From: Escherichia phage vB-Eco-KMB36
Strand: one strand, 5' to 3'
Sequence record: OR525703.1
DNA: 44,710 nucleotides
Numbering within the stretch: position 1 is the first letter of the stretch; the number at the start of each line of letters is the position of its first letter. A model generated the notes under the pieces. The model did no database searches. It had not been told where the DNA came from and saw only the letters and a program-made list of their open reading frames with translations. The position numbers and the translations under genes were made by a program. This document shows positions 3 to 30,859 of this stretch, in pieces.

Positions 3-1253
3 ATGAGTATTCAGCTATCCGCGCCACAGGCGCTGTTCCTTAATTGCGATAACAAATACAAGGCCTACGTAGGCGGCTTCGGTAGTGGCAAGACGTTTGT
101 CGGCTGCCTTGACCTGCTTACGTTTATGCTCAAGCACCCCGGCACGCGCCTGGGCTACTTCGGCCCGACCTATCCCGCCATCCGTGACATCTTCTACCCA
201 ACATTCGAGGAAGCGGCTAACCTGCTCGGCCTTGATGTGCTGGTTAAATCCGGAGACAAAGAGGTTGTGGTTACTCGCGGTAAGACGGTGCTCGGAACGG
301 TTATCTGCCGCTCTATGGATAACCCCGGCTCGATTGTGGGTTTCAAAATCGCCGCAGCATGCGTGGATGAGCTCGATGTATTGAGCCGAGAAAAAGCTGA
401 ACTGGCATGGAACAAAATCGTCGCCCGTATGCGTCTGGTTATCCCTGGTGTAACCAACCACATCTCCGTCACCACGACGCCGGAAGGGTTCAAGTTCGTC
501 TACGCCAAGTTCAAAGAGAACCCGACACCGAGTTACTCAATGGTGCAGGCTTCCACCCACGAGAACGCGCGATTCCTGCCGCCTGACTACATTAGCTCGC
601 TGACCGAGACTTACCCAGCGCAACTGATTAACGCGTACCTGAATGGGGAGTTCGTTAACCTGACATCCGGCAGCGTGTATTACGCCTACGACCGACGTAA
701 GCATCGCAGCAAAGAGACAATCCAACCGGGCGACACGCTGTACATCGGGCAGGACTTCAACGTTACGAAGAACGCCAGCGCCGTGTATGTGCAACGTAAA
801 GACGGCTGGCACGCGGTAGCAGAACTGAAGGGCCTGTTCGATACGCCAGATACCGTGCGTGTGATTACCGAGAAGTGGAAGTCGCAAGGCCACCGCATCG
901 TCGTTTACCCGGACGCCAGCGGCAAGAACCGCAAAACCAACTCGGCGTCAATCTCCGATATCGCCTTACTACAGCAGGCCGGTTTTGATGTTCGCGCTAA
1001 ATCCGCCAACCCACCGGTTAAAGACCGTGTTTTAGCCGTGAATACCGCGCTGGAAAAAGGTAAGCTGTGGGTTAACGACCACTTATGCCCTGAGATAGCG
1101 AAGACGCTGGAGCAGCAGGCATATGATGATAACGGAGAGCCTGCTAAAGACGGCGTCATTGACCATATGGCGGATGCTCTCGGCTATCCTGTAGTTTATG
1201 AGATGCCGGTGGTTAAACCAGTAATCAACATCCCGGTGACTTTCGCACTTTAA
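3..1253 (+). CDS. terminase large subunit
   Basis: 416-aa ORF with N-terminal P-loop GGFGSGKT; lies directly upstream of the portal gene; begins at window edge so true start uncertain. Confidence 0.75.
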   Translation: MSIQLSAPQALFLNCDNKYKAYVGGFGSGKTFVGCLDLLTFMLKHPGTRLGYFGPTYPAIRDIFYPTFEEAANLLGLDVLVKSGDKEVVVTRGKTVLGTVICRSMDNPGSIVGFKIAAACVDELDVLSREKAELAWNKIVARMRLVIPGVTNHISVTTTPEGFKFVYAKFKENPTPSYSMVQASTHENARFLPPDYISSLTETYPAQLINAYLNGEFVNLTSGSVYYAYDRRKHRSKETIQPGDTLYIGQDFNVTKNASAVYVQRKDGWHAVAELKGLFDTPDTVRVITEKWKSQGHRIVVYPDASGKNRKTNSASISDIALLQQAGFDVRAKSANPPVKDRVLAVNTALEKGKLWVNDHLCPEIAKTLEQQAYDDNGEPAKDGVIDHMADALGYPVVYEMPVVKPVINIPVTFAL

Positions 1254-1265
1254 GAGGATTATTCA

Positions 1266-2747
1266 ATGTTAACTATGAACGGTCAGAATCAGGGTGTTAA
1301 GACAAAACACCGGGAATGGCTGCATCACTTCAATAAATGGCAGAAGGTGCGCCACGCGCTGGAAGGCGACCTCATCCGTTACCTGCGCAATGTCGGGAAG
1401 AACGAGCCTGACCTGACCTATGCGGCACAGCGCCAGGAAGAATACGAGAACGGCGCTATCTGTTACAACTTCACTAAACGTACCCTGGCGGGGATGGTCG
1501 GCAGTGTCATGCGCAAAGACCCTGAACAGATTATCCCGCCTGAGCTTGAGTATCTGTTACGTAACGCCGACGGTTCCGGTGTCGGTCTGTGGCAGCACGC
1601 GCAGGATACGCTGATGGAGATTGACTCGGTGGGGCGTGGCGGGTTGCTGGTGGACGCCCCAGAGACAGCCGCGGCGACGGCAGCCGAACAGAACGCTGGA
1701 TTATTAAATCCGGTCATCGCATTCTATACCGCAGAGAACATCATCAACTGGCGACTGACTCGCGTCGGTTCAGTGAACCGCGTAACGATGGTCGTGCTGC
1801 GTGAGGTATGGGAATACTCTGAACCGGGAGCAGAGTTCGAAACAAAGTTCGGTGAGCAGTACCGTGTTCTCGATTTGATTGACGGGCGCTACCGCCAGCG
1901 CATTTACCGCTTCGATTCCGAAGGTGGCGCTCAGGGTGACGTAATCGAAATCTTCCCGGAACTCGGCGAACAGTTACGCGGCAAAATCCCGTTCACGTTC
2001 ATCGGGGCAAGCAACAACGACGCGACCATAGATGACGCGCCTTTGCTGCCGTTAGCCGAGCTTAATATCGGGCATTTCCGTAACAGCGCGGACAATGAGG
2101 AATCCAGCTTCGTTGTAGGGCAGCCTACTCTGTTCATTGCACCTGGTGAGAACATGAGCATGGAGCAGTGGAAGGAAGCCAACCCTCACGGCGTGCACAT
2201 GGGGTCACGTTCAGGTCATAACATTGGTTACGGTGGCAATGCATTTCTTGTTCAGGCAGGAGAGAACAACCTCGCCAAACAGAATATGCTGGATAAAGAG
2301 AATCAGGCCATTCAGATTGGCGCGCAGCTTATCACCCCGACGCAGCAAATCACCGCCGAATCCGCCCGCCTGCAACGTGGCGCGGATACGTCTGTTATGG
2401 CGACAATAGCACGTAACGTAAGTATGGCGTATACCGATGCATTGCGCTGGGTAGCCACGATGCTCGGGCTTAGTGACGGTACTGAGATTGAGTTCAAGTT
2501 GAATATGGAGTTCTTCCTGCAACCGATGACCGCTCAGGACCGCGCTCAGTGGATGGCGGACATTAACGCAGGCCTGTTACCGGCTACAGCTTACTACGCC
2601 GCGTTGCGTAAAGCAGGGGTGACTGACTGGACCGACGAGGATATTCAGAACGCTATTGAGGACGCACCTCTGCCGTTAGGTGCTGTTACTCAGGTGGCAG
2701 GAGAGATTCCGCAGTCGGCGCAGCAACAAGATGTCACTCAGCAGTAA
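1266..2747 (+). CDS. portal protein
   Basis: 493-aa ORF between terminase and head morphogenesis gene; size and position typical of portal. Confidence 0.65.
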   Translation: MLTMNGQNQGVKTKHREWLHHFNKWQKVRHALEGDLIRYLRNVGKNEPDLTYAAQRQEEYENGAICYNFTKRTLAGMVGSVMRKDPEQIIPPELEYLLRNADGSGVGLWQHAQDTLMEIDSVGRGGLLVDAPETAAATAAEQNAGLLNPVIAFYTAENIINWRLTRVGSVNRVTMVVLREVWEYSEPGAEFETKFGEQYRVLDLIDGRYRQRIYRFDSEGGAQGDVIEIFPELGEQLRGKIPFTFIGASNNDATIDDAPLLPLAELNIGHFRNSADNEESSFVVGQPTLFIAPGENMSMEQWKEANPHGVHMGSRSGHNIGYGGNAFLVQAGENNLAKQNMLDKENQAIQIGAQLITPTQQITAESARLQRGADTSVMATIARNVSMAYTDALRWVATMLGLSDGTEIEFKLNMEFFLQPMTAQDRAQWMADINAGLLPATAYYAALRKAGVTDWTDEDIQNAIEDAPLPLGAVTQVAGEIPQSAQQQDVTQQ

Positions 2748-2783
2748 GTTCACATATAGCCCCGAAAGGGGCTTTCTTATAGT

Positions 2784-4754
2784 ATGCTATTAACTTTAGC
2801 GCCACAGGGTTCATCTATGAGCTTACTTACATCTCTAATCAGCCACCAGATATGGCTGCAACGCACTGCATCCGGTGAGGTGAAAGACCTCGCGCCGTTC
2901 ATTAAGGAGATGCGGGACGAAATAAAACGGCAGGTGCTGTTATTCGGCGACGACGGGCGAAGCACCGCGCGACTGAATAAACTGTTACGCGACCTTGAAG
3001 AAGCACTTACCGCGCTTACCGGTGACTGGCGGACAAAGCTGACGGAAGACCTTAAGGAGCTTGCAGCGTATGAGGCTGAGTGGAATGTGAAGACACTCAC
3101 GGCTAACGTTAATGCGGAATTTGTTACCCCGACCGCTGAACAGGTGTGGTCCGCCGCCGAGTTTCAGCCATTATCATTAAGCGACAAGCCAGTTGACTTC
3201 ACTAAGCTGATGTCGGGCTGGGGGGAAACAGAAGTCGCGCGCCTTGTAACAGGCGTTAAGATGGGCTTTGTACAAGGCCAGACAACACGGCAGATTGTTA
3301 AGAATGTTGTTGGTGCTGGTGGTTTGGCGGACATTTCAGAACGTAACGCGGCTACTGTAATCCGCACCGCGCTGTCTCATGTATCCAACGAGGCCCGTAA
3401 CGAGACGTACCGCCAGAACGACGACATCATCGAGAAGTACGAGTGGGTGTCGACGCTGGACAGCCGTACCAGTACAACGTGTTTCACGGCTGAAACAGAA
3501 TTAGCGCCCATCGCGGGGATGGACGCGGTAATGCGCGGACTCTATTCAGGAAAAATCCTTACCATCGAACTTTCCAACGGCGAGAAGTTCAGTGGCACCC
3601 CGAAACACCCTGTACTCACGCAATACGGATGGACTCCGCTTGATGAACTCGACCCAACTAAGCATGTCTTGTATACCACTGTTGACAAAGTGACTGTGCT
3701 CGAAACAGTGAAGAACATAAACATGCCAGCCAGAGCGGATTATATTTTTAATACGCTCGCTGATTTCCCCATCAGGAAAATGGTAAGCACGAGTCCCGCG
3801 GCAACAGATTTCTATGGCGATGGAGTGGGACTCAATGGCAAAATCGACATTGTACGGGCCGATTGCAAACTGCGGAACTACGTCCACGCCAGCGGAATTA
3901 AACAATTCAAAAGCGAGGGTTTCAGTCTTATTCATAGCGCCGCTTTGCTGTCGGACGATAGCTCTGGCGATTTTCTCCTCCGGGGTGAATGTCCTGTGAG
4001 TGTGCCCGCGCTTAGCGAGGCCAAGTGTTTTGACCATAGAATAGAAAACTGTTTTGCTTACTTGGGTCCTTCTTATGCACTCAATAGGCGGGACGCCGGA
4101 CTCGAACAATTCTATAGCCCTTTTTTGATTCAAAATGGTGTCGTTAGAAACCCAACCACGGGGTCGATCATGCATGAGTCCGAGCTTCTTGAGAAATGTT
4201 GTTACCGTGGTGGTAGTGACGCCGTAATTCTTGGCTATGATGCTGGCGGGAGTGCCATCTCGGTACAAAGAACAAATATCATCCGCATAAGCGTCGAGTT
4301 TAGAACGTGCCATGTTTATACCCTCTCTAGTAGTCAAGGATATTATACAGCAGGTAGTGCGATAGTCAAGAATTGCAGGGCCAGAGACGGAATGACGTGG
4401 GAAATCGGTAAAGGACCGATGCCCCCGGCCCATTTTGGGTGCAGAAGTACTACCGCACCAGTAATCAGTTCCGAGTTCGACTTCCTCGATAAAGGCGCGA
4501 AACGCGCAGCTAAGGGCGCAGAAGGTGGTACCCAGGTAAGCGCAGACACCACCTATTACGAGTTCCTTAAACAACAACCGGCATGGTTTCAGGATGAAGC
4601 ATTAGGGCCGGTTCGCGGTAAGATTTTCCGTAACAGCGGTATATCGCCGGAAGAGTTTCGCGTAATATCTGTAGATGGTTTCGGGAATCCGCTGACGCTT
4701 AAGCAGATGGCGGAACTCGATAAACGTGTTGCTGATTATCTGAAAGAGGATTAA
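2784..4754 (+). CDS. head morphogenesis protein (SPP1 gp7 / Mu F-like) containing an in-frame intein
   Basis: Extein motifs DSRTSTT...CRARDGMTWEIGKGPMPPAHFGCRS match the Mu F/gp7 signature once residues 233-530 are removed; alternative start ATG 2817. Confidence 0.7.
   Translation: MLLTLAPQGSSMSLLTSLISHQIWLQRTASGEVKDLAPFIKEMRDEIKRQVLLFGDDGRSTARLNKLLRDLEEALTALTGDWRTKLTEDLKELAAYEAEWNVKTLTANVNAEFVTPTAEQVWSAAEFQPLSLSDKPVDFTKLMSGWGETEVARLVTGVKMGFVQGQTTRQIVKNVVGAGGLADISERNAATVIRTALSHVSNEARNETYRQNDDIIEKYEWVSTLDSRTSTTCFTAETELAPIAGMDAVMRGLYSGKILTIELSNGEKFSGTPKHPVLTQYGWTPLDELDPTKHVLYTTVDKVTVLETVKNINMPARADYIFNTLADFPIRKMVSTSPAATDFYGDGVGLNGKIDIVRADCKLRNYVHASGIKQFKSEGFSLIHSAALLSDDSSGDFLLRGECPVSVPALSEAKCFDHRIENCFAYLGPSYALNRRDAGLEQFYSPFLIQNGVVRNPTTGSIMHESELLEKCCYRGGSDAVILGYDAGGSAISVQRTNIIRISVEFRTCHVYTLSSSQGYYTAGSAIVKNCRARDGMTWEIGKGPMPPAHFGCRSTTAPVISSEFDFLDKGAKRAAKGAEGGTQVSADTTYYEFLKQQPAWFQDEALGPVRGKIFRNSGISPEEFRVISVDGFGNPLTLKQMAELDKRVADYLKED
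3480..4373 (+). mobile_element. intein (Hint domain, about 298 aa) in head morphogenesis protein
   Basis: Starts CFTAETEL, block B GTPKHPVLTQYGW, C-terminal VYTLSSSQGYYTAGSAIVKN followed by Cys+1; penultimate Lys instead of His. Confidence 0.6.
3546..4313 (-). CDS. putative homing endonuclease (tandem HTH + Vsr/DUF559-like nuclease) encoded antisense inside the intein
   Basis: 256-aa ORF from ATG at 4313 with upstream GAGAGGG; HTH-like TPASIIAKNYGVTTTTVTTFLKK and VSKTVFYSMVKTLGL; nuclease-like PYNVDFAIESHSIAIEI and ERIKNIIRSGWHVYVL; lies entirely within intein 3480..4373. Confidence 0.45.
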   Translation of the reverse strand: MARSKLDAYADDICSLYRDGTPASIIAKNYGVTTTTVTTFLKKLGLMHDRPRGWVSNDTILNQKRAIELFESGVPPIECIRRTQVSKTVFYSMVKTLGLAKRGHTHRTFTPEEKIARAIVRQQSGAMNKTETLAFELFNSAGVDVVPQFAIGPYNVDFAIESHSIAIEICCRGTRAYHFPDGEISERIKNIIRSGWHVYVLHCFEHSHFVNSGIQDMLSWVEFIKRSPSVLREYRVFRGATELLAVGKFDGKDFS

Positions 4755-26286: not shown

Positions 26287-26574
26287 TTAACTATAATAGC
26301 TCGCTATTAGGTCGTCAACCTGTTTAAACGAACCAACGACAAAAACATTTGCACCACGTTTACGCATCCGCTCGTGCTCTCGTAACTGGTGCGGGTCCGG
26401 CTTCGTGTTTTCGTCTTTCTTAACCTCGACGAACCAGATGATGCCACCAGGGAGAATTACCAGCAGGTCAGGAGCTCCCACTCTATTTTCGTACGACAAT
26501 TTGCGTACAAGGCCCCCCATGGCCTCGAATCGCTCTTTTGCGTATTTCTGTACGCGGCCCTCTTTAGTCGCCAT
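26287..26574 (-). CDS. VRR-NUC-like nuclease
   Basis: PDLLVILPGG...WFVEVK pattern. Confidence 0.55.
   Translation of the reverse strand: MATKEGRVQKYAKERFEAMGGLVRKLSYENRVGAPDLLVILPGGIIWFVEVKKDENTKPDPHQLREHERMRKRGANVFVVGSFKQVDDLIASYYS
26290..26318 (-). promoter_or_regulatory. sigma70-like promoter with AATAG-N4-CTATT palindrome
   Basis: Minus strand reads TTGACG, 17 nt, TATAGT; palindrome at 26295..26308. Confidence 0.5.
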
Positions 26575-27070
26575 GGTTGCAAAACTCTCCGTGCAGTTTT
26601 GCCCTAAATTCTCTCAGCGATTCCTCTGCTTCATTTAGGTTCTGGAAATACCCAATCTGGTAGCGTGTACCTTTAAAAGCAACTCGAGCGCACCAAGCAT
26701 TATGAGGCTTACTCCAGTTAACCCCTTTCACGCCGCTGGTGTTCGTAACTGGGGTCTTGCGGTTATGGTTCTGTTGAAATTCATCCGCAAGCCGTAGGTT
26801 ACAAATCCGGTTATCGTCCCGTATGCCGTTAATATGGTCTATTTGCTTAGTTGGCATTTCTCCGTATACCCACCACCACGCCAGCCTGTGTGCGCGGTAA
26901 TACACCCTATTCCATCCTAACAATATGTACCCTTTACGGTCCTTGTAGGTAACAACATCTCCGGGTTTCGCGGTCTGGCATCTGTGCTTGACCCATTCAA
27001 ATATCCCGGTATCCGGGTCGTATGACAGAAAATTTTTTATGTCGTCACTTGGTGCTTTCATAATACGCAC
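26564..27070 (-). CDS. HNH homing endonuclease with AP2 domain
   Basis: QIDHINGIRDDNRICNL HNH core, AP2-like SGVKGVNWSKPHNAWCARV. Confidence 0.7.
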   Translation of the reverse strand: MRIMKAPSDDIKNFLSYDPDTGIFEWVKHRCQTAKPGDVVTYKDRKGYILLGWNRVYYRAHRLAWWWVYGEMPTKQIDHINGIRDDNRICNLRLADEFQQNHNRKTPVTNTSGVKGVNWSKPHNAWCARVAFKGTRYQIGYFQNLNEAEESLREFRAKLHGEFCNHGD

Positions 27071-27143: not shown

Positions 27144-27275
27144 TCATTCCAGCACCCACAGATAAATTGCGATGAACATACCTAATACGGCTACCATCAT
27201 GCCGTATTGACCCTCATGACAGTAGACACCGGCGGCGAATCCCGCCAGTACCGCGATAATCAGTTTACTTAGCAT
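27144..27275 (-). CDS. hypothetical small membrane protein
   Basis: 43-codon hydrophobic ORF whose ATG overlaps the polymerase stop. Confidence 0.3.
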   Translation of the reverse strand: MLSKLIIAVLAGFAAGVYCHEGQYGMMVAVLGMFIAIYLWVLE

Positions 27276-30200
27276 AGCGTTTTAACTCCGCACCTTCCGC
27301 TACAAGAGGGAAACCCTCCGCCCACTCAGGCAGCGAACACATTAATTTTTCCAGTTCAGCCACCGTGTACTCTGGGGCATCTGGAGTTTCGCACACCAAT
27401 TCATCGTGTACCGAAAGCACGATGGGGTACCCGCCGCCTTCAACGTTAATCATCGCATACGCAAGTAAATCACGGCACAGCGCCTGAACAATGTTTTCGC
27501 AGGCTTTACCGCCGTGGGTGTACAGGGTAGTCCATTGGCGGGTTAACTGGTTTTCCCCCTGATACTTGATTCGCACATTCGTGTTTACCCGTCCGTCTTC
27601 GTCCGTTTCCTTTGTTACACTAACGCCGATTCCCGGATACGAGAGGATGCGACCTGACGGCAACTCCATGCATAACCACCAACCAGGAACCTCCCTGCCG
27701 GATGAATCAAATTCTACAGTACGCCATATGCGGATAGCCCTTTCCCCATTCCTTCGCAAGTGTGCTCCCGCCCAAAATTCACGACCAGGATTACGCACAG
27801 CGGCTAAAATTCCTTCTTTAAGGTCACGCCAGAACGCTACTGTTTCCGGGTGTGACTCGCGCCACATACGCTTGATTGCGTCGCATGTGCGCCACACTTT
27901 CTTGTCCAGAATATACGATGGTCGGTCATCCTTCTCACCTGGATGCGGGGGGCGCTTGGCTTCCTGGATGCGCGCCCATTCATATCCTCTCGCGGTGGCC
28001 GACCAGATGTGGTCCGGGAATGTACCGTCCATTGTTTTTGCCATCTCAATAAGGTCAAGACCTAAGTTTTTAGCAAACTGAACGAACGCCCCGACGCCAC
28101 CCTCGTAGCCTAGTCCAAGCTCGCAGTTATGCGCCACAAGAAAGCCAGAGCCTGAGGCTATAAGAAAACGGTTGCCGTCTTCCACATCAATCAGGTCGTA
28201 CACCGGCTCGCAGTAGGTTAATTTCCCGCTCAAGTTCAGCAATGCGGGCAACGGCTGCATCATACTTTCGTTGAAGCTCGGGTATTTGCCGTCTGTTTCG
28301 GCAGTTTTCAGAACGGCTGACAAACCGAATGTTTCCAGGTTCGTAGTTACCGTCTGTGTCGATTCTATCCATTTCGAGGTTCGGGTCATCCCAGCCTTCC
28401 AGAGTTTGAACATATCTAAGAAAAGACCTTTTATCAGTCCTCCACTGGTCGAATACCGTGATGCCTCTTGCCCCATAGTTTTTATAACCCTTATCCCTGG
28501 GGCTTGTTGTTCGCGTGATCGCCGCGGACAGCCGGTTGAGTAATCGCGTTCTGTGCGCATCATCCGGCATTGCGTCTTCGTAGCAGAAATACTGTTTACG
28601 ATATTTTTTTGTTGCTTCAAGGGCGCAGCGGTTGCATTGAGTGGTTTTACCCGCTCTGACGTTGTCATAATAGACCCGCCCCGGCATCTCTCCGCAATCA
28701 CATTGGACGAGTAGTTGTCTTTGGCCTTGTCGTTTTGGTAACTCGCGCAGGATAACCAAGCGTCCATACCTCTCTCCAGGGCGAGGCCCATCATATATCT
28801 GTTTGAAGCGAGTTGCTTTGCCTGCTTCCAGGAATGCGCCAAGATTTTGTGGTCTTCGGTCATTAGCACCCCGTCCACATTTATTACCGGTTTCCACCCC
28901 ATAAGGTGCGCGCCTTTTGTATTCACCCATTTTTCACCGCTCCATACTTTATCTGTTGATGTAACCGCCATAATATCCTTAAATCCGCCATCGGTCAAAA
29001 CTTGGGTATGACGGTGAAGGCACGCTTTACCAATCTGGCGCAAGTCTTTACGTTCTTTCTTAATATAGTCGGGGTCCATGCCAAACATCTTACCTGCGGT
29101 TACGCAATAAATATCCAACCCGGCGCGGAAAGTATCAAGCGCGGTTTCTTCGCCTGCCAACCACGCAAGCCCACGACCCTCAACGTTAGAGTAATCGGCA
29201 ACAACAAACTTATGCCCCACTTCCGGTATGATGCAGCTACGTACCGTCGATGCCGTTAGCTTGGCTACATCAAAACGGCGGTGTGCCCGGCCTTTAAGTA
29301 ACGCTGAAATGCCTTTATCCAGTTCATCATCGTGATAGTACCCGCGCGCCAGGTTCTGCGGCTGGAAGCCTTTACCCGCCCATCGCAGGGTACGTTTTGC
29401 CCCGCCATACTGTAAGCACCCGCGACGACGATCGTCAGACGAGCGGCCTAACAGCAGTGGGTTATATTTCGTTGACGCAGTGGATGCCGCCCCGAGGCGC
29501 ATTTCTATAATCGCGCGGGCATCGTCCGGTAAATCATCGTCTGCCAGCAGGTCGTTAAGCGTCGACTTCTGCGCGTTATGGATTCGGTGTGCTGGTGCGA
29601 GTTCACGCAGAATAGGCAGAAAGTCCTTACCGGTAAGCGAGCCGCCGTATTTGCGTTGGGCTTCTTCCTGTAACTGCGCTTTGTGTTTTTCCACGGCTTC
29701 GATTGCGGCTTCCGCCAGTGCAACGTCGACCTTAAACCCGCGGTCATTGATTAATTGGTCCAGCTCCAGTACACGGTCCTCGAACTCGGAGTTACCCCAA
29801 CGCGGCAGCTTATGGAAGACTTCGCGCATCGCAGTGATGTCGCTCACGGCGTACTTAATGAACAGCGCCCACTCGTCCGGGTGTGTTTCTGCGGTGTAGC
29901 GGCGGATTTTGTAATTCTTCGGTGTCGGTTTAGAGAAACGCTGAATCAGCGCCTTGCCGCGTTTATCTTTCGCGTTGTCCGCAGACACGCCCAACACTTC
30001 GCACAGTGCATCAAGTGACCCCGGCAGCGCGTGGCGAAACGCCCAAATCATCGTATCAATGGTGTTGCTTACCGGAATATCAAAGCCCCAGCAGTGCTTC
30101 ATGATGAGCCTGTCGAACATTAAAAAGTTATGGCCCACGATTTTCATACGTCCACGCATAACATTACGGAGAGCAACGCGGAGGCTTATTGGCATTACTG

Positions 30201-30360
30201 GTTCGGAAGTGCAATCCCATACTTCTACAGGACCGTCATCAACGGCATATGTACAAATTATAACCTCGGTCGTTGGATGCTCCGCGTACGCGTACGACCC
30301 AACTTTCTTTAAGTCCGCTCCAGAGAATGTCTCAGTATCTAGGTACAATAAACTAGTCAT
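27265..30360 (-). CDS. DNA polymerase I (family A) interrupted by an intein
   Basis: Exo motif YLDTETFS, polymerase motif A VADYSNVEGRG, C-terminal VHDELV; 299-aa insertion between RQIGKA and CELGLGYEGG. Confidence 0.8.
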   Translation of the reverse strand: MTSLLYLDTETFSGADLKKVGSYAYAEHPTTEVIICTYAVDDGPVEVWDCTSEPVMPISLRVALRNVMRGRMKIVGHNFLMFDRLIMKHCWGFDIPVSNTIDTMIWAFRHALPGSLDALCEVLGVSADNAKDKRGKALIQRFSKPTPKNYKIRRYTAETHPDEWALFIKYAVSDITAMREVFHKLPRWGNSEFEDRVLELDQLINDRGFKVDVALAEAAIEAVEKHKAQLQEEAQRKYGGSLTGKDFLPILRELAPAHRIHNAQKSTLNDLLADDDLPDDARAIIEMRLGAASTASTKYNPLLLGRSSDDRRRGCLQYGGAKRTLRWAGKGFQPQNLARGYYHDDELDKGISALLKGRAHRRFDVAKLTASTVRSCIIPEVGHKFVVADYSNVEGRGLAWLAGEETALDTFRAGLDIYCVTAGKMFGMDPDYIKKERKDLRQIGKACLHRHTQVLTDGGFKDIMAVTSTDKVWSGEKWVNTKGAHLMGWKPVINVDGVLMTEDHKILAHSWKQAKQLASNRYMMGLALERGMDAWLSCASYQNDKAKDNYSSNVIAERCRGGSIMTTSERVKPLNATAAPLKQQKNIVNSISATKTQCRMMRTERDYSTGCPRRSREQQAPGIRVIKTMGQEASRYSTSGGLIKGLFLDMFKLWKAGMTRTSKWIESTQTVTTNLETFGLSAVLKTAETDGKYPSFNESMMQPLPALLNLSGKLTYCEPVYDLIDVEDGNRFLIASGSGFLVAHNCELGLGYEGGVGAFVQFAKNLGLDLIEMAKTMDGTFPDHIWSATARGYEWARIQEAKRPPHPGEKDDRPSYILDKKVWRTCDAIKRMWRESHPETVAFWRDLKEGILAAVRNPGREFWAGAHLRRNGERAIRIWRTVEFDSSGREVPGWWLCMELPSGRILSYPGIGVSVTKETDEDGRVNTNVRIKYQGENQLTRQWTTLYTHGGKACENIVQALCRDLLAYAMINVEGGGYPIVLSVHDELVCETPDAPEYTVAELEKLMCSLPEWAEGFPLVAEGAELKRYAK
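28126..29022 (-). mobile_element. intein (Hint domain, 299 aa) in DNA polymerase
   Basis: CLHRHTQVLTDGGFKDI, TEDHKILAHS, VYDLIDVEDGNRFLIASGSGFLVAHN then Cys+1; boundaries checked on nucleotides. Confidence 0.65.
28187..28930 (-). CDS. HNH endonuclease gene overlapping the intein in the +1 frame
   Basis: Zinc ribbon CDCG...CNRC and HNH core DRIDTDGNYEPGNIRFVSRSENCRNRR; own GGAG RBS and ATG; frame offset from polymerase verified on nucleotides. Confidence 0.55.
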   Translation of the reverse strand: MGEYKRRAPYGVETGNKCGRGANDRRPQNLGAFLEAGKATRFKQIYDGPRPGERYGRLVILRELPKRQGQRQLLVQCDCGEMPGRVYYDNVRAGKTTQCNRCALEATKKYRKQYFCYEDAMPDDAHRTRLLNRLSAAITRTTSPRDKGYKNYGARGITVFDQWRTDKRSFLRYVQTLEGWDDPNLEMDRIDTDGNYEPGNIRFVSRSENCRNRRQIPELQRKYDAAVARIAELEREINLLRAGVRPD

Positions 30361-30826
30361 GGCAATAAAATTCCTTGTGCAGTTTTTCTCTTAATTTCTT
30401 TACGGCGCTTTCTGCTTCTTCAAGAGTTCCGTAGCTACCAGCGTTATAACTTTTGTAGTTAAAATGTACACGCCCGTAAAATCGGTTGCCGTTTTTAACT
30501 ACTCCCTTAACTCCGGTTCTAGCTCCCTTATTTTTAGCGTTTCGCACATTATCAGCGGTTGTTGCTTTCCTTAGGTTAGAAATCCTATTGTCTAACCTGT
30601 CACGGTTTATATGGTCAAGAGGCCCCTCGGGCCATTCACCGTACTCGAAAAACCAAGCAAGCCTGTGGGCCATGTAATATCTACCCATATAAGGTATGCG
30701 CCAGTATCCACTACTATTGATGCACCCAGCGATGTCTCCGGGTTTTCCTCGTCTGTACGTAGGTTGTATCCATGTGAATATTCCGGTTTCTCGGTTATAA
30801 CTAAGAAAATCTTTTATATGTTCCAT
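30353..30826 (-). CDS. HNH homing endonuclease with AP2 domain
   Basis: LDHINRDRLDNRISNL HNH core, AP2-like TGVKGVVKNGNRFYGRV; start at ATG 30826 after GGAG; stop overlaps polymerase start. Confidence 0.7.
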   Translation of the reverse strand: MEHIKDFLSYNRETGIFTWIQPTYRRGKPGDIAGCINSSGYWRIPYMGRYYMAHRLAWFFEYGEWPEGPLDHINRDRLDNRISNLRKATTADNVRNAKNKGARTGVKGVVKNGNRFYGRVHFNYKSYNAGSYGTLEEAESAVKKLREKLHKEFYCHD

Positions 30827-30834
30827 TCTGACTC

Positions 30835-30859
30835 CGGTAAAAAGGCCCAATGAAGGGCC
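30835..30859 (-). terminator. rho-independent terminator
   Basis: On minus strand GGCCCTTCATTGGGCC followed by TTTTT, immediately upstream of the HNH RBS. Confidence 0.6.

Follow-up and report, generated by a model that had tools for sequence, protein, structure and literature searches.

Results

Does the intein within the gene for the DNA polymerase of Escherichia phage vB-Eco-KMB36 carry its homing endonuclease as a domain in the polymerase frame, or does a second, overlapping gene occupy the same bases? The window analysed here is a 44,710-nucleotide (nt) stretch of this phage (sequence record OR525703.1), a Kagunavirus-like member of the Guernseyvirinae; its polymerase gene shares 94% identity with the one in Escherichia phage fPoEco01. 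A preliminary description, made from the letters of the window, had proposed the second arrangement. Our answer, which we hold with good confidence, is that a class-1 intein lies in motif B of the family-A polymerase (PolA) and that the homing endonuclease is encoded not as an in-frame domain but by a gene of its own, which overlaps the intein in the -1 frame.

Identity and boundaries of the polymerase intein

The polymerase precursor is a single continuous open reading frame (ORF) of 1031 amino acids (aa), not split into two, that matches a 3'-5' exonuclease in Pfam as well as the polymerase family itself (Table 1). Its 299-aa insertion begins with CLHRHTQVLTDG, holds an internal TEDH and ends in VAHN, followed by Cys; the coordinates and sequences first reported for the polymerase ORF, the insertion and the ORF nested within it all stood. 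In the intein-free polymerase allele of phage fFiEco03 (733 aa), RQIGKA runs into CELGLGY uninterrupted. In 469 phage records the sequence continues across this junction with the insert exactly missing, whereas 165 records have it, and alignment with the intein-free alleles thereby fixes both of its ends. Every splicing residue (C1, T55, H58, D276, H298 and N299) is invariant in an alignment of 48 homologous inteins, and at +1 nearly all loci have Cys, with Ser in a single locus (L098). These comparative sequence data establish the identity of the intein, as first proposed, and its exact boundaries.

Recognition by curated models was uneven, and profile searches on the two frames bore out the preliminary description only in part: a RecA mini-intein and the PHROG family phrog_374 were matched, and the Pfam intein and HNH models were not. 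A Pfam scan left the intein in the polymerase ORF unrecognised. Its assignment draws on a profile match in the PDB to the mini-intein of Mtu RecA (E=4e-4), on the invariant catalytic residues and on the predicted fold, for which the top 27 Foldseek matches of the AlphaFold2 intein model in the PDB were all inteins (probability 0.75-1.0, with E-values of only 0.01-0.6). The C-terminal splicing domain was modelled with a predicted local distance difference test score (pLDDT) of 94-97 (residues 265-299). Sequencing error is excluded because 165 GenBank records share an indel-free intein of 897 nt, which also disposes of the possibility, raised at the outset, that two compensating indels would bring an HNH domain into the polymerase frame.

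Between the two splicing domains, the polymerase frame reads a stretch in which S, T, K, R, Q and N make up 46.7% of residues, against 28% in the exteins. This linker is predicted to be disordered and would represent an unconstrained shadow translation of the nested gene.

Selection on two overlapping reading frames

The nested ORF starts at intein nt 92 (0-based; 92 mod 3 = 2) and is therefore in the -1/+2 frame ('frame 3') and not, as we had it initially, in the +1 frame. Read in the polymerase frame, one stretch of bases gives ...TSKWIESTQTVTTNLETF; read in the nested frame, it gives ...LEMDRIDTDGNYEPGN. To follow constraint along the intein, we calculated the ratio of non-synonymous to synonymous substitution (omega) in each frame by the Nei-Gojobori method, comparing the window intein with those of Sodalis phage SO-1 and EP23. 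In nt 0-180, omega was 0.06-0.07 in the polymerase frame and ~1.6 in the nested frame; in nt 285-750 the order reversed, with 1.3-1.4 in the polymerase frame and 0.10-0.12 in the nested frame; and in nt 750-897 the polymerase frame was again the constrained one (0.12-0.14, against ~1). In nt 0-180 and in nt 750-897, variable sites fall at the third position of polymerase codons; in nt 180-750 they fall at polymerase position 2, which is nested-frame position 3. From this switch it follows that, in the middle of the intein, the nested protein is conserved and the polymerase-frame peptide is free to vary, yet never stopped. Purifying selection thus acts on each frame in its own segment.

That the polymerase frame remains open is itself beyond chance. 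In 14 distinct close variants it contains no stop and the nested ORF is intact throughout, with 24-31 stops in the third frame. When the nested protein is recoded synonymously, 5.6 polymerase-frame stops are expected, and that frame stays stop-free in only 0.07% of cases (P=7e-4). All 49 of 49 distant inteins have zero host-frame stops, against 1.5-8.5 expected from a conservative permutation of each ORF's own codons. Selection against stops in the polymerase frame, suggested earlier on the strength of a single sequence, is therefore seen across relatives, and both frames are conserved in the 14 close variants and in the 68 distant loci described below.

Distribution and mobility

The protein database contains 305 homologues of the nested protein, mostly of 236-262 aa, and a profile-guided scan of IMG/VR found 332 contigs that encode a relative. 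Among the IMG/VR loci we retained the 68 that are not close to the window (42-71% identity). In 68/68, an intact ORF is nested in the +2 frame of a PolA intein that ends in HN followed by C, and these inteins occupy two or three neighbouring sites in motif B. Together with the omega frame switch, the variation at polymerase position 2 and the wobble base at the nested start (see below), this pattern argues for a separate overlapping endonuclease gene, as the preliminary description had held, rather than a domain in frame with the intein.

A sister group in IMG/VR (L022, L024 and L025) has homologous ORFs in the +1 frame of PolA inteins, and the host frame of this subfamily again has 0 stops, against 8-12 expected. 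The occurrence of both +1 and +2 relationships implies independent invasions or changes of frame during evolution. A further homologue, also in the +1 frame, lies in the P45 polymerase of phage APSE-2 (Table 1), whose intein is inserted at a different site, after TYGGKS, begins with C and ends in HN followed by CEN; the host frame across this homologue has 0 stops, against 8 expected. Free-standing relatives include L023, L026, Staphylococcus phage 812 Gp70, FSL SP-030 gp63, Gordonia phage Zipp gp80 and others; genes that carry the label 'HNH endonuclease' in Staphylococcus, Salmonella, Gordonia and Bacillus phages are among them. Overall, 915 phage records contain a match to the family.

In one locus (L021, 2423..3157), the nested ORF is interrupted by a stop and the polymerase frame is still open, which may reflect decay of the endonuclease gene within an intein that is itself intact. 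Metagenomic homologues of the nested protein lie mostly on contigs of ~0.9-1.3 kb, near the size of the intein. Assemblies may break at intein boundaries where a sample holds several extein backgrounds or is polymorphic for the presence of the intein.

The intein is also far more similar between phages than the polymerase around it. Against Salmonella phage f18SE, identity is 77% in the N-extein, 99.4% in the intein and 87% in the C-extein; against SO-1, which belongs to a different genus (Dhillonvirus), the corresponding values are 67%, 83% and 63%. This gap between intein and extein identity, combined with presence/absence polymorphism, is a signature that indicates homing, and horizontal spread of the intein is evident from these sequence comparisons.

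The nested protein and its candidate active site

The nested protein matched the PHROG family phrog_374, labelled 'HNH endonuclease' (6.9e-47), and more weakly a family labelled 'endonuclease VII' (2e-5); matches to curated profiles were limited to PHROG families with these two labels. Neither the nested ORF nor its relatives matched Pfam HNH models or any NCBIfam model, and a Pfam scan of 78 homologues returned only weak CapR matches. PDB sequence searches with the protein or its profile gave only zinc-ribbon noise, and Foldseek with its AlphaFold2 model found nothing significant in the PDB. Homology to canonical HNH_3 proteins is not demonstrated, because hhalign found no significant similarity between the family and an HNH_3 protein encoded in the window (probability 1.4%).

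Two elements of the protein stand out. The first is a zinc-ribbon-like motif, whose profile weakly resembles the COX5B zinc ribbon. The second is a predicted strand-loop-strand-helix at residues 186-211 (model pLDDT 85), part of a putative beta-beta-alpha core. Besides the four Cys of the ribbon, D188, R189, Y196, N200 and N209 are invariant in the 78 homologues. The core, at first taken for a canonical HNH motif, contains no His: Arg189 stands at the position of the catalytic His and is invariant in the 78 close and in 11 distant homologues, including free-standing members. Tyr196, also invariant, lies in the loop between the two strands.

The missing His raises the question of whether the nested protein cuts DNA at all. 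It could be expressed and conserved as a DNA-binding or targeting factor that has lost its catalytic His, with a flanking HNH_3 protein or another phage nuclease doing the cutting (trans-homing). Arg189 in every family member examined, the failure of Pfam HNH models to match any of them and the two HNH_3 genes directly beside the polymerase gene fit this explanation, and among the His-Me fingers with neither His nor Tyr there are some that bind DNA but are inactive (PMC5714182). PacI, however, is a His-Me finger without the catalytic His that uses a loop tyrosine (PMC5714182), and the invariant Tyr196 in the inter-strand loop corresponds to that solution. In hundreds of phages the family also behaves as a mobile gene that is free-standing, and the intein spreads where the flanking genes differ, as in fPoEco01, which has no HNH_3 gene beside its polymerase gene. 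We therefore consider a non-cutting role improbable, albeit worth keeping in mind. The nested protein is plausibly an active PacI-like variant, in which the part played by Tyr196 is inferred from its position only.

Proposed initiation of the nested gene

As first described, the nested ORF has its own ATG (28930..28928) and an upstream GGAG (28943..28940). Across the family, nested starts are NTG, where N is the wobble base before either of two conserved Trp codons of the splicing domain (LWDG and EWV). Among 50 distant inteins, the base before the Trp32 codon is A in 38/50 and G in 12/50, with no C or T, and the base before the other Trp is A in 33/50. C is found at neither position (0/100), compared with background frequencies of 24% for A and 22% for C, and 45/50 inteins have an ATG at these Trp codons. 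The nested start codon is thus under selection. A four-codon mini-ORF in the nested frame (ATG GAG CGG TGA, 28934..28945, minus strand) ends four bases before the nested ATG; its own ATG, at intein nt 77, is the start of the nested ORF in many relatives.

The nested frame might instead be reached by programmed -1 frameshifting, which would produce an N-extein/intein-N/HNH fusion and, with a second shift, could even yield a conventional in-frame intein. The nested frame is indeed the -1 frame, an A-rich run (GAAAAAT) overlaps the ATG, and many relatives lack a clear Shine-Dalgarno sequence. A canonical slippery heptamer, however, is absent, and selection of the wobble base before the Trp codons for ATG/GTG makes sense only for initiation; frameshifting at the A-run was rejected on this ground. 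Moreover, the first ~25-30 nested codons are unconstrained in the nested frame (omega ~1.6) and predicted to be disordered, and these features support independent initiation over frameshifting. A double shift would need no open polymerase frame, and the frame is open in every lineage. Frameshifting is accordingly a very unlikely route, and we retain independent initiation of a separate gene as the preferred reading.

Transcription of the nested gene may also have a local source. A sigma-70-like promoter candidate lies in the block-A codons, and its motif scores >=9/12 in 32/50 distant inteins, nearly all at the same position and with the same spacing. The Leu9 codon is TTG in 31/40 cases, compared with 150/448 elsewhere (p=7e-8); the wobble base at nt 47 is T in 37/47 inteins (35/43 in a subset). 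An internal sigma-70-like promoter for the nested ORF remains a tentative assignment, because the motif is weaker in the +1 subfamily. Separately, the wobble positions at intein nt 8 and nt 53 (window 29014 and 28969) show unusual conservation among distant inteins, at ~1 bit, where other four-fold sites have 0.1-0.3, and neither the -35/-10 motif nor the start codon explains this.

Neighbouring genes and database annotation

Canonical free-standing HNH_3 genes flank the polymerase gene on both sides (Table 1), and the upstream one overlaps the polymerase start by 8 nt. Elsewhere in the window, a Mu F-like head morphogenesis protein has an intein too. The preliminary description took this second intein to follow the same logic as the polymerase intein, which did not hold: its extra ORF is antisense, not a shifted frame on the same strand. 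The likely start of this antisense ORF is the Met of MARSKL, at ~4313.

Database records label the polymerase region variously, as a single polymerase, as an 'intron' or as split genes. In Sodalis phage SO-1 (L006, GQ502199.1; gp38/gp39), the nested ORF is annotated as gp39 and the insert is called a 'type I self-splicing intron'. In Salmonella phage SS3e (L004, NC_006940.2), single-base insertions at intein nt 33 and 306, each within a homopolymer, divide the annotated polymerase between two genes and give rise to orf42, an 'HNH endonuclease'. We considered SS3e as a case of compensating indels that put the HNH region in frame and rejected it: the net change is +2, both insertions are in homopolymer runs and the polymerase would be disrupted, and the extra bases are probably sequencing errors in an old record. 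Papers on Jerseyvirus and on APSE mention inteins, but no nested gene.

A group I intron with an endonuclease ORF, as annotated in SO-1, or a decaying intein frameshifted by mutation or sequencing error, as the split polymerase and separate 'HNH endonuclease' of SS3e might suggest, deserves next to no credence, given that Rfam has no family match at E<=1 in 27900..29300 and a group I intron signature was not found there, that the insert is a multiple of three in length with an open host frame and invariant intein catalytic residues at omega ~0.1, that the nested frame likewise has omega ~0.1 and that 160+ independently sequenced genomes have no indels, the two extra bases of SS3e aside.

Table 1 Features of the polymerase locus and related elements (window coordinates unless another record is named)
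Feature	Coordinates	Strand	Evidence
Family-A DNA polymerase precursor ORF, 1031 aa; two exteins and intein	27265..30360	minus	Pfam DNA_pol_A 2e-15
Class-1 intein, 299 aa, polymerase motif B, between Ala and Cys (RQIGKA / CELGLGY)	28126..29022	minus	Allele comparison, invariant residues, profile, fold
N-terminal splicing domain, intein aa 1-100, blocks A and B	28723..29022	minus	pLDDT 97-98; polymerase-frame omega in nt 0-180 (see text)
Polymerase-frame linker, intein aa 107-243	28294..28704	minus	pLDDT <50; no secondary structure; omega (see text); 0 stops
C-terminal splicing domain with blocks F and G and terminal His-Asn, intein aa 250-299	28126..28275	minus	Polymerase-frame omega (see text); D276/H298/N299 invariant
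Cys+1, directly after intein	28123..28125	minus	Sequence
Nested ORF, 247 aa and stop, HNH-like homing-endonuclease candidate, -1/+2 frame	28187..28930	minus	ORF list, phrog_374, omega, AlphaFold2
ATG start of nested ORF: wobble A of Lys31 (AAA) and TG of conserved Trp32 codon	28928..28930	minus	Wobble conservation
Shine-Dalgarno-like GGAG, nine bases 5' of nested ATG	28940..28943	minus	Read from sequence
Sigma-70-like promoter candidate, TTGACC-17 nt-TATTAT, in block-A codons	28970..28998	minus	10/12 positions match; tentative
Zinc-ribbon-like CxC...CxxC motif (C77, C79, C99, C102)	28625..28702	minus	All four Cys invariant in 78 homologues
Putative beta-beta-alpha core of nested protein, aa 186-214: EMDRIDTDGNYEPGNIRFVSRSENCRNRR	28289..28375	minus	
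Canonical free-standing HNH_3 gene beside polymerase gene	26564..27070	minus	Pfam E=2.5e-12
Canonical free-standing HNH_3 gene beside polymerase gene	30353..30850	minus	Pfam E=2.3e-15
Mu F-like head morphogenesis protein, 656 aa, with intein	2784..4754	plus	Weak Pfam Intein_splicing match
Long ORF antisense inside head-protein intein	3546..4577	minus	Weak helix-turn-helix and REase_MTES_1575 (Vsr-like) matches
Nested homologue in APSE-2 (L109, EU794049.1), +1 frame	2225..2890, inside P45 polymerase 217..3198		hhalign probability 98.9%

Discussion

Taken with the selection on both frames, these results suggest how the locus might work. Ribosomes would read through the intein in the polymerase frame and produce an N-terminal splicing domain, a disordered linker of ~140 aa and a C-terminal splicing domain, the linker being no more than the nested gene read out of frame. 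The two splicing halves would fold into a HINT domain, as in mini-inteins, and Cys1, the TxxH motif, His-Asn299 and Cys+1 would excise the intein and restore RQIGKACELGLGY. The 247-aa nested protein would be made separately from the ATG at 28930 with its upstream GGAG, possibly driven as well by the sigma-70-like promoter within the block-A codons. With its zinc ribbon and a predicted beta-beta-alpha core that has Arg for the usual His and an invariant loop Tyr, as in a PacI-like enzyme, it would most likely cut intein-less polymerase alleles during co-infection, after which repair would copy the intein and the nested gene together. For splicing, separate translation, promoter use, nuclease activity and the target, we infer each step from sequence.

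Several points weigh against this account. An obvious Shine-Dalgarno sequence is lacking in many of the family members whose ATG is at intein nt 77. Conserved amino acids (VLT, AIV) account for part of the promoter motif, which is also weak in the +1 subfamily. The flanking HNH_3 genes could contribute to the mobility of the region. Finally, the sequences compared are related, and the counts drawn from them are not fully independent.

A wider conclusion can be offered more tentatively. The out-of-frame endonuclease may be no rare and transient accident that follows the invasion of an intein by a free-standing gene; across a large clade of phage PolA inteins it may be the dominant architecture, ancient, stable and selected. 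We regard this as possible without leaning on it. Three findings agree with it: nested genes occur in inteins at two or three motif B sites and at another in APSE, homologous endonucleases lie in either the +1 or the +2 frame, and the start codon and promoter-like -35/-10 signals of the nested gene are placed in the codons of the splicing domain. If so, the arrangement would uncouple endonuclease dosage from polymerase dosage, and a disordered tether would replace the folded domain.

The findings matter at several levels. Annotation overlooks a conserved gene in Jerseyvirus, Kagunavirus and Dhillonvirus, groups of Salmonella and E. coli phages that are widely studied and used in phage typing and therapy. 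The prevalence of the arrangement bears on how inteins acquire endonucleases, in particular on the model of 'splicing first, invasion by free-standing endonuclease genes'. The locus is also an unusually clean case of natural dual coding, in which one frame is selected only for the absence of stops, and a useful test case for methods that detect overlapping genes. For intein engineering, the models suggest that a disordered insert of ~140 aa may be tolerated between intein halves.

Comparison with known systems

The general arrangement is already known, although the preliminary description had implied that it was new. A 2025 preprint (Gosselin, Arsenault & Gogarten; bioRxiv 10.1101/2025.01.02.630785) presents actinobacteriophage inteins whose endonucleases occupy a frame of their own, comprising antisense LAGLIDADG, antisense VSR-like and EndoVII-like cases, the last in 'frame 3', and calls them rare. 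Our locus shares with the EndoVII-like inteins a same-strand endonuclease ORF between the splicing blocks, in the third frame, with the extein frame open; an in-frame translation of the endonuclease region without recognisable structure; and an endonuclease related to free-standing phage endonucleases, with signs of continued horizontal transfer. It differs in its hosts, which are enterobacterial and metagenomic phages, and in its extein, motif B of a family-A polymerase. The proteins differ in layout as well: a zinc ribbon together with a C-terminal His-less core in the nested protein, and an N-terminal EndoVII-like core (residues 1-67) in the actinobacteriophage endonuclease. What is new here is the scale and depth of conservation, the frame-switching selection, the start built from a Trp codon and the two alternative frame relationships. 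With 165 GenBank phages and 332 IMG/VR contigs, conserved to ~42% identity, the arrangement is far commoner and more ancient than the preprint implies.

In the antisense LAGLIDADG and VSR-like inteins (Gorbalenya 1998; Gosselin et al. 2025), the endonuclease is likewise encoded separately inside the intein, but on the opposite strand, whereas the ORF of the polymerase intein lies on the same strand and in the same mRNA. The head-protein intein of the window appears to be of this antisense type, and resembles the minor capsid inteins with an antisense VSR-like endonuclease (Gosselin et al. 2025).

Other systems share single features. Fractured genes (Dassa et al. 2009, PMC2677866) combine an intein and a separately translated endonuclease gene at one locus; there the host gene is divided between two ORFs and splices in trans, whereas the host ORF here is continuous and splicing would be in cis. 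The HNH insertion in the methylase of phage ShiLan (Arsenault et al. 2025, PMC11855218) has an alternative-frame endonuclease with the host frame open; it has no splicing domains and is thought to be retained in the protein, unlike the nested gene described here, which is flanked by complete intein splicing domains. To PacI (group 20; Jablonska et al. 2017, PMC5714182), the nested protein has a weak structural match and no significant sequence match.

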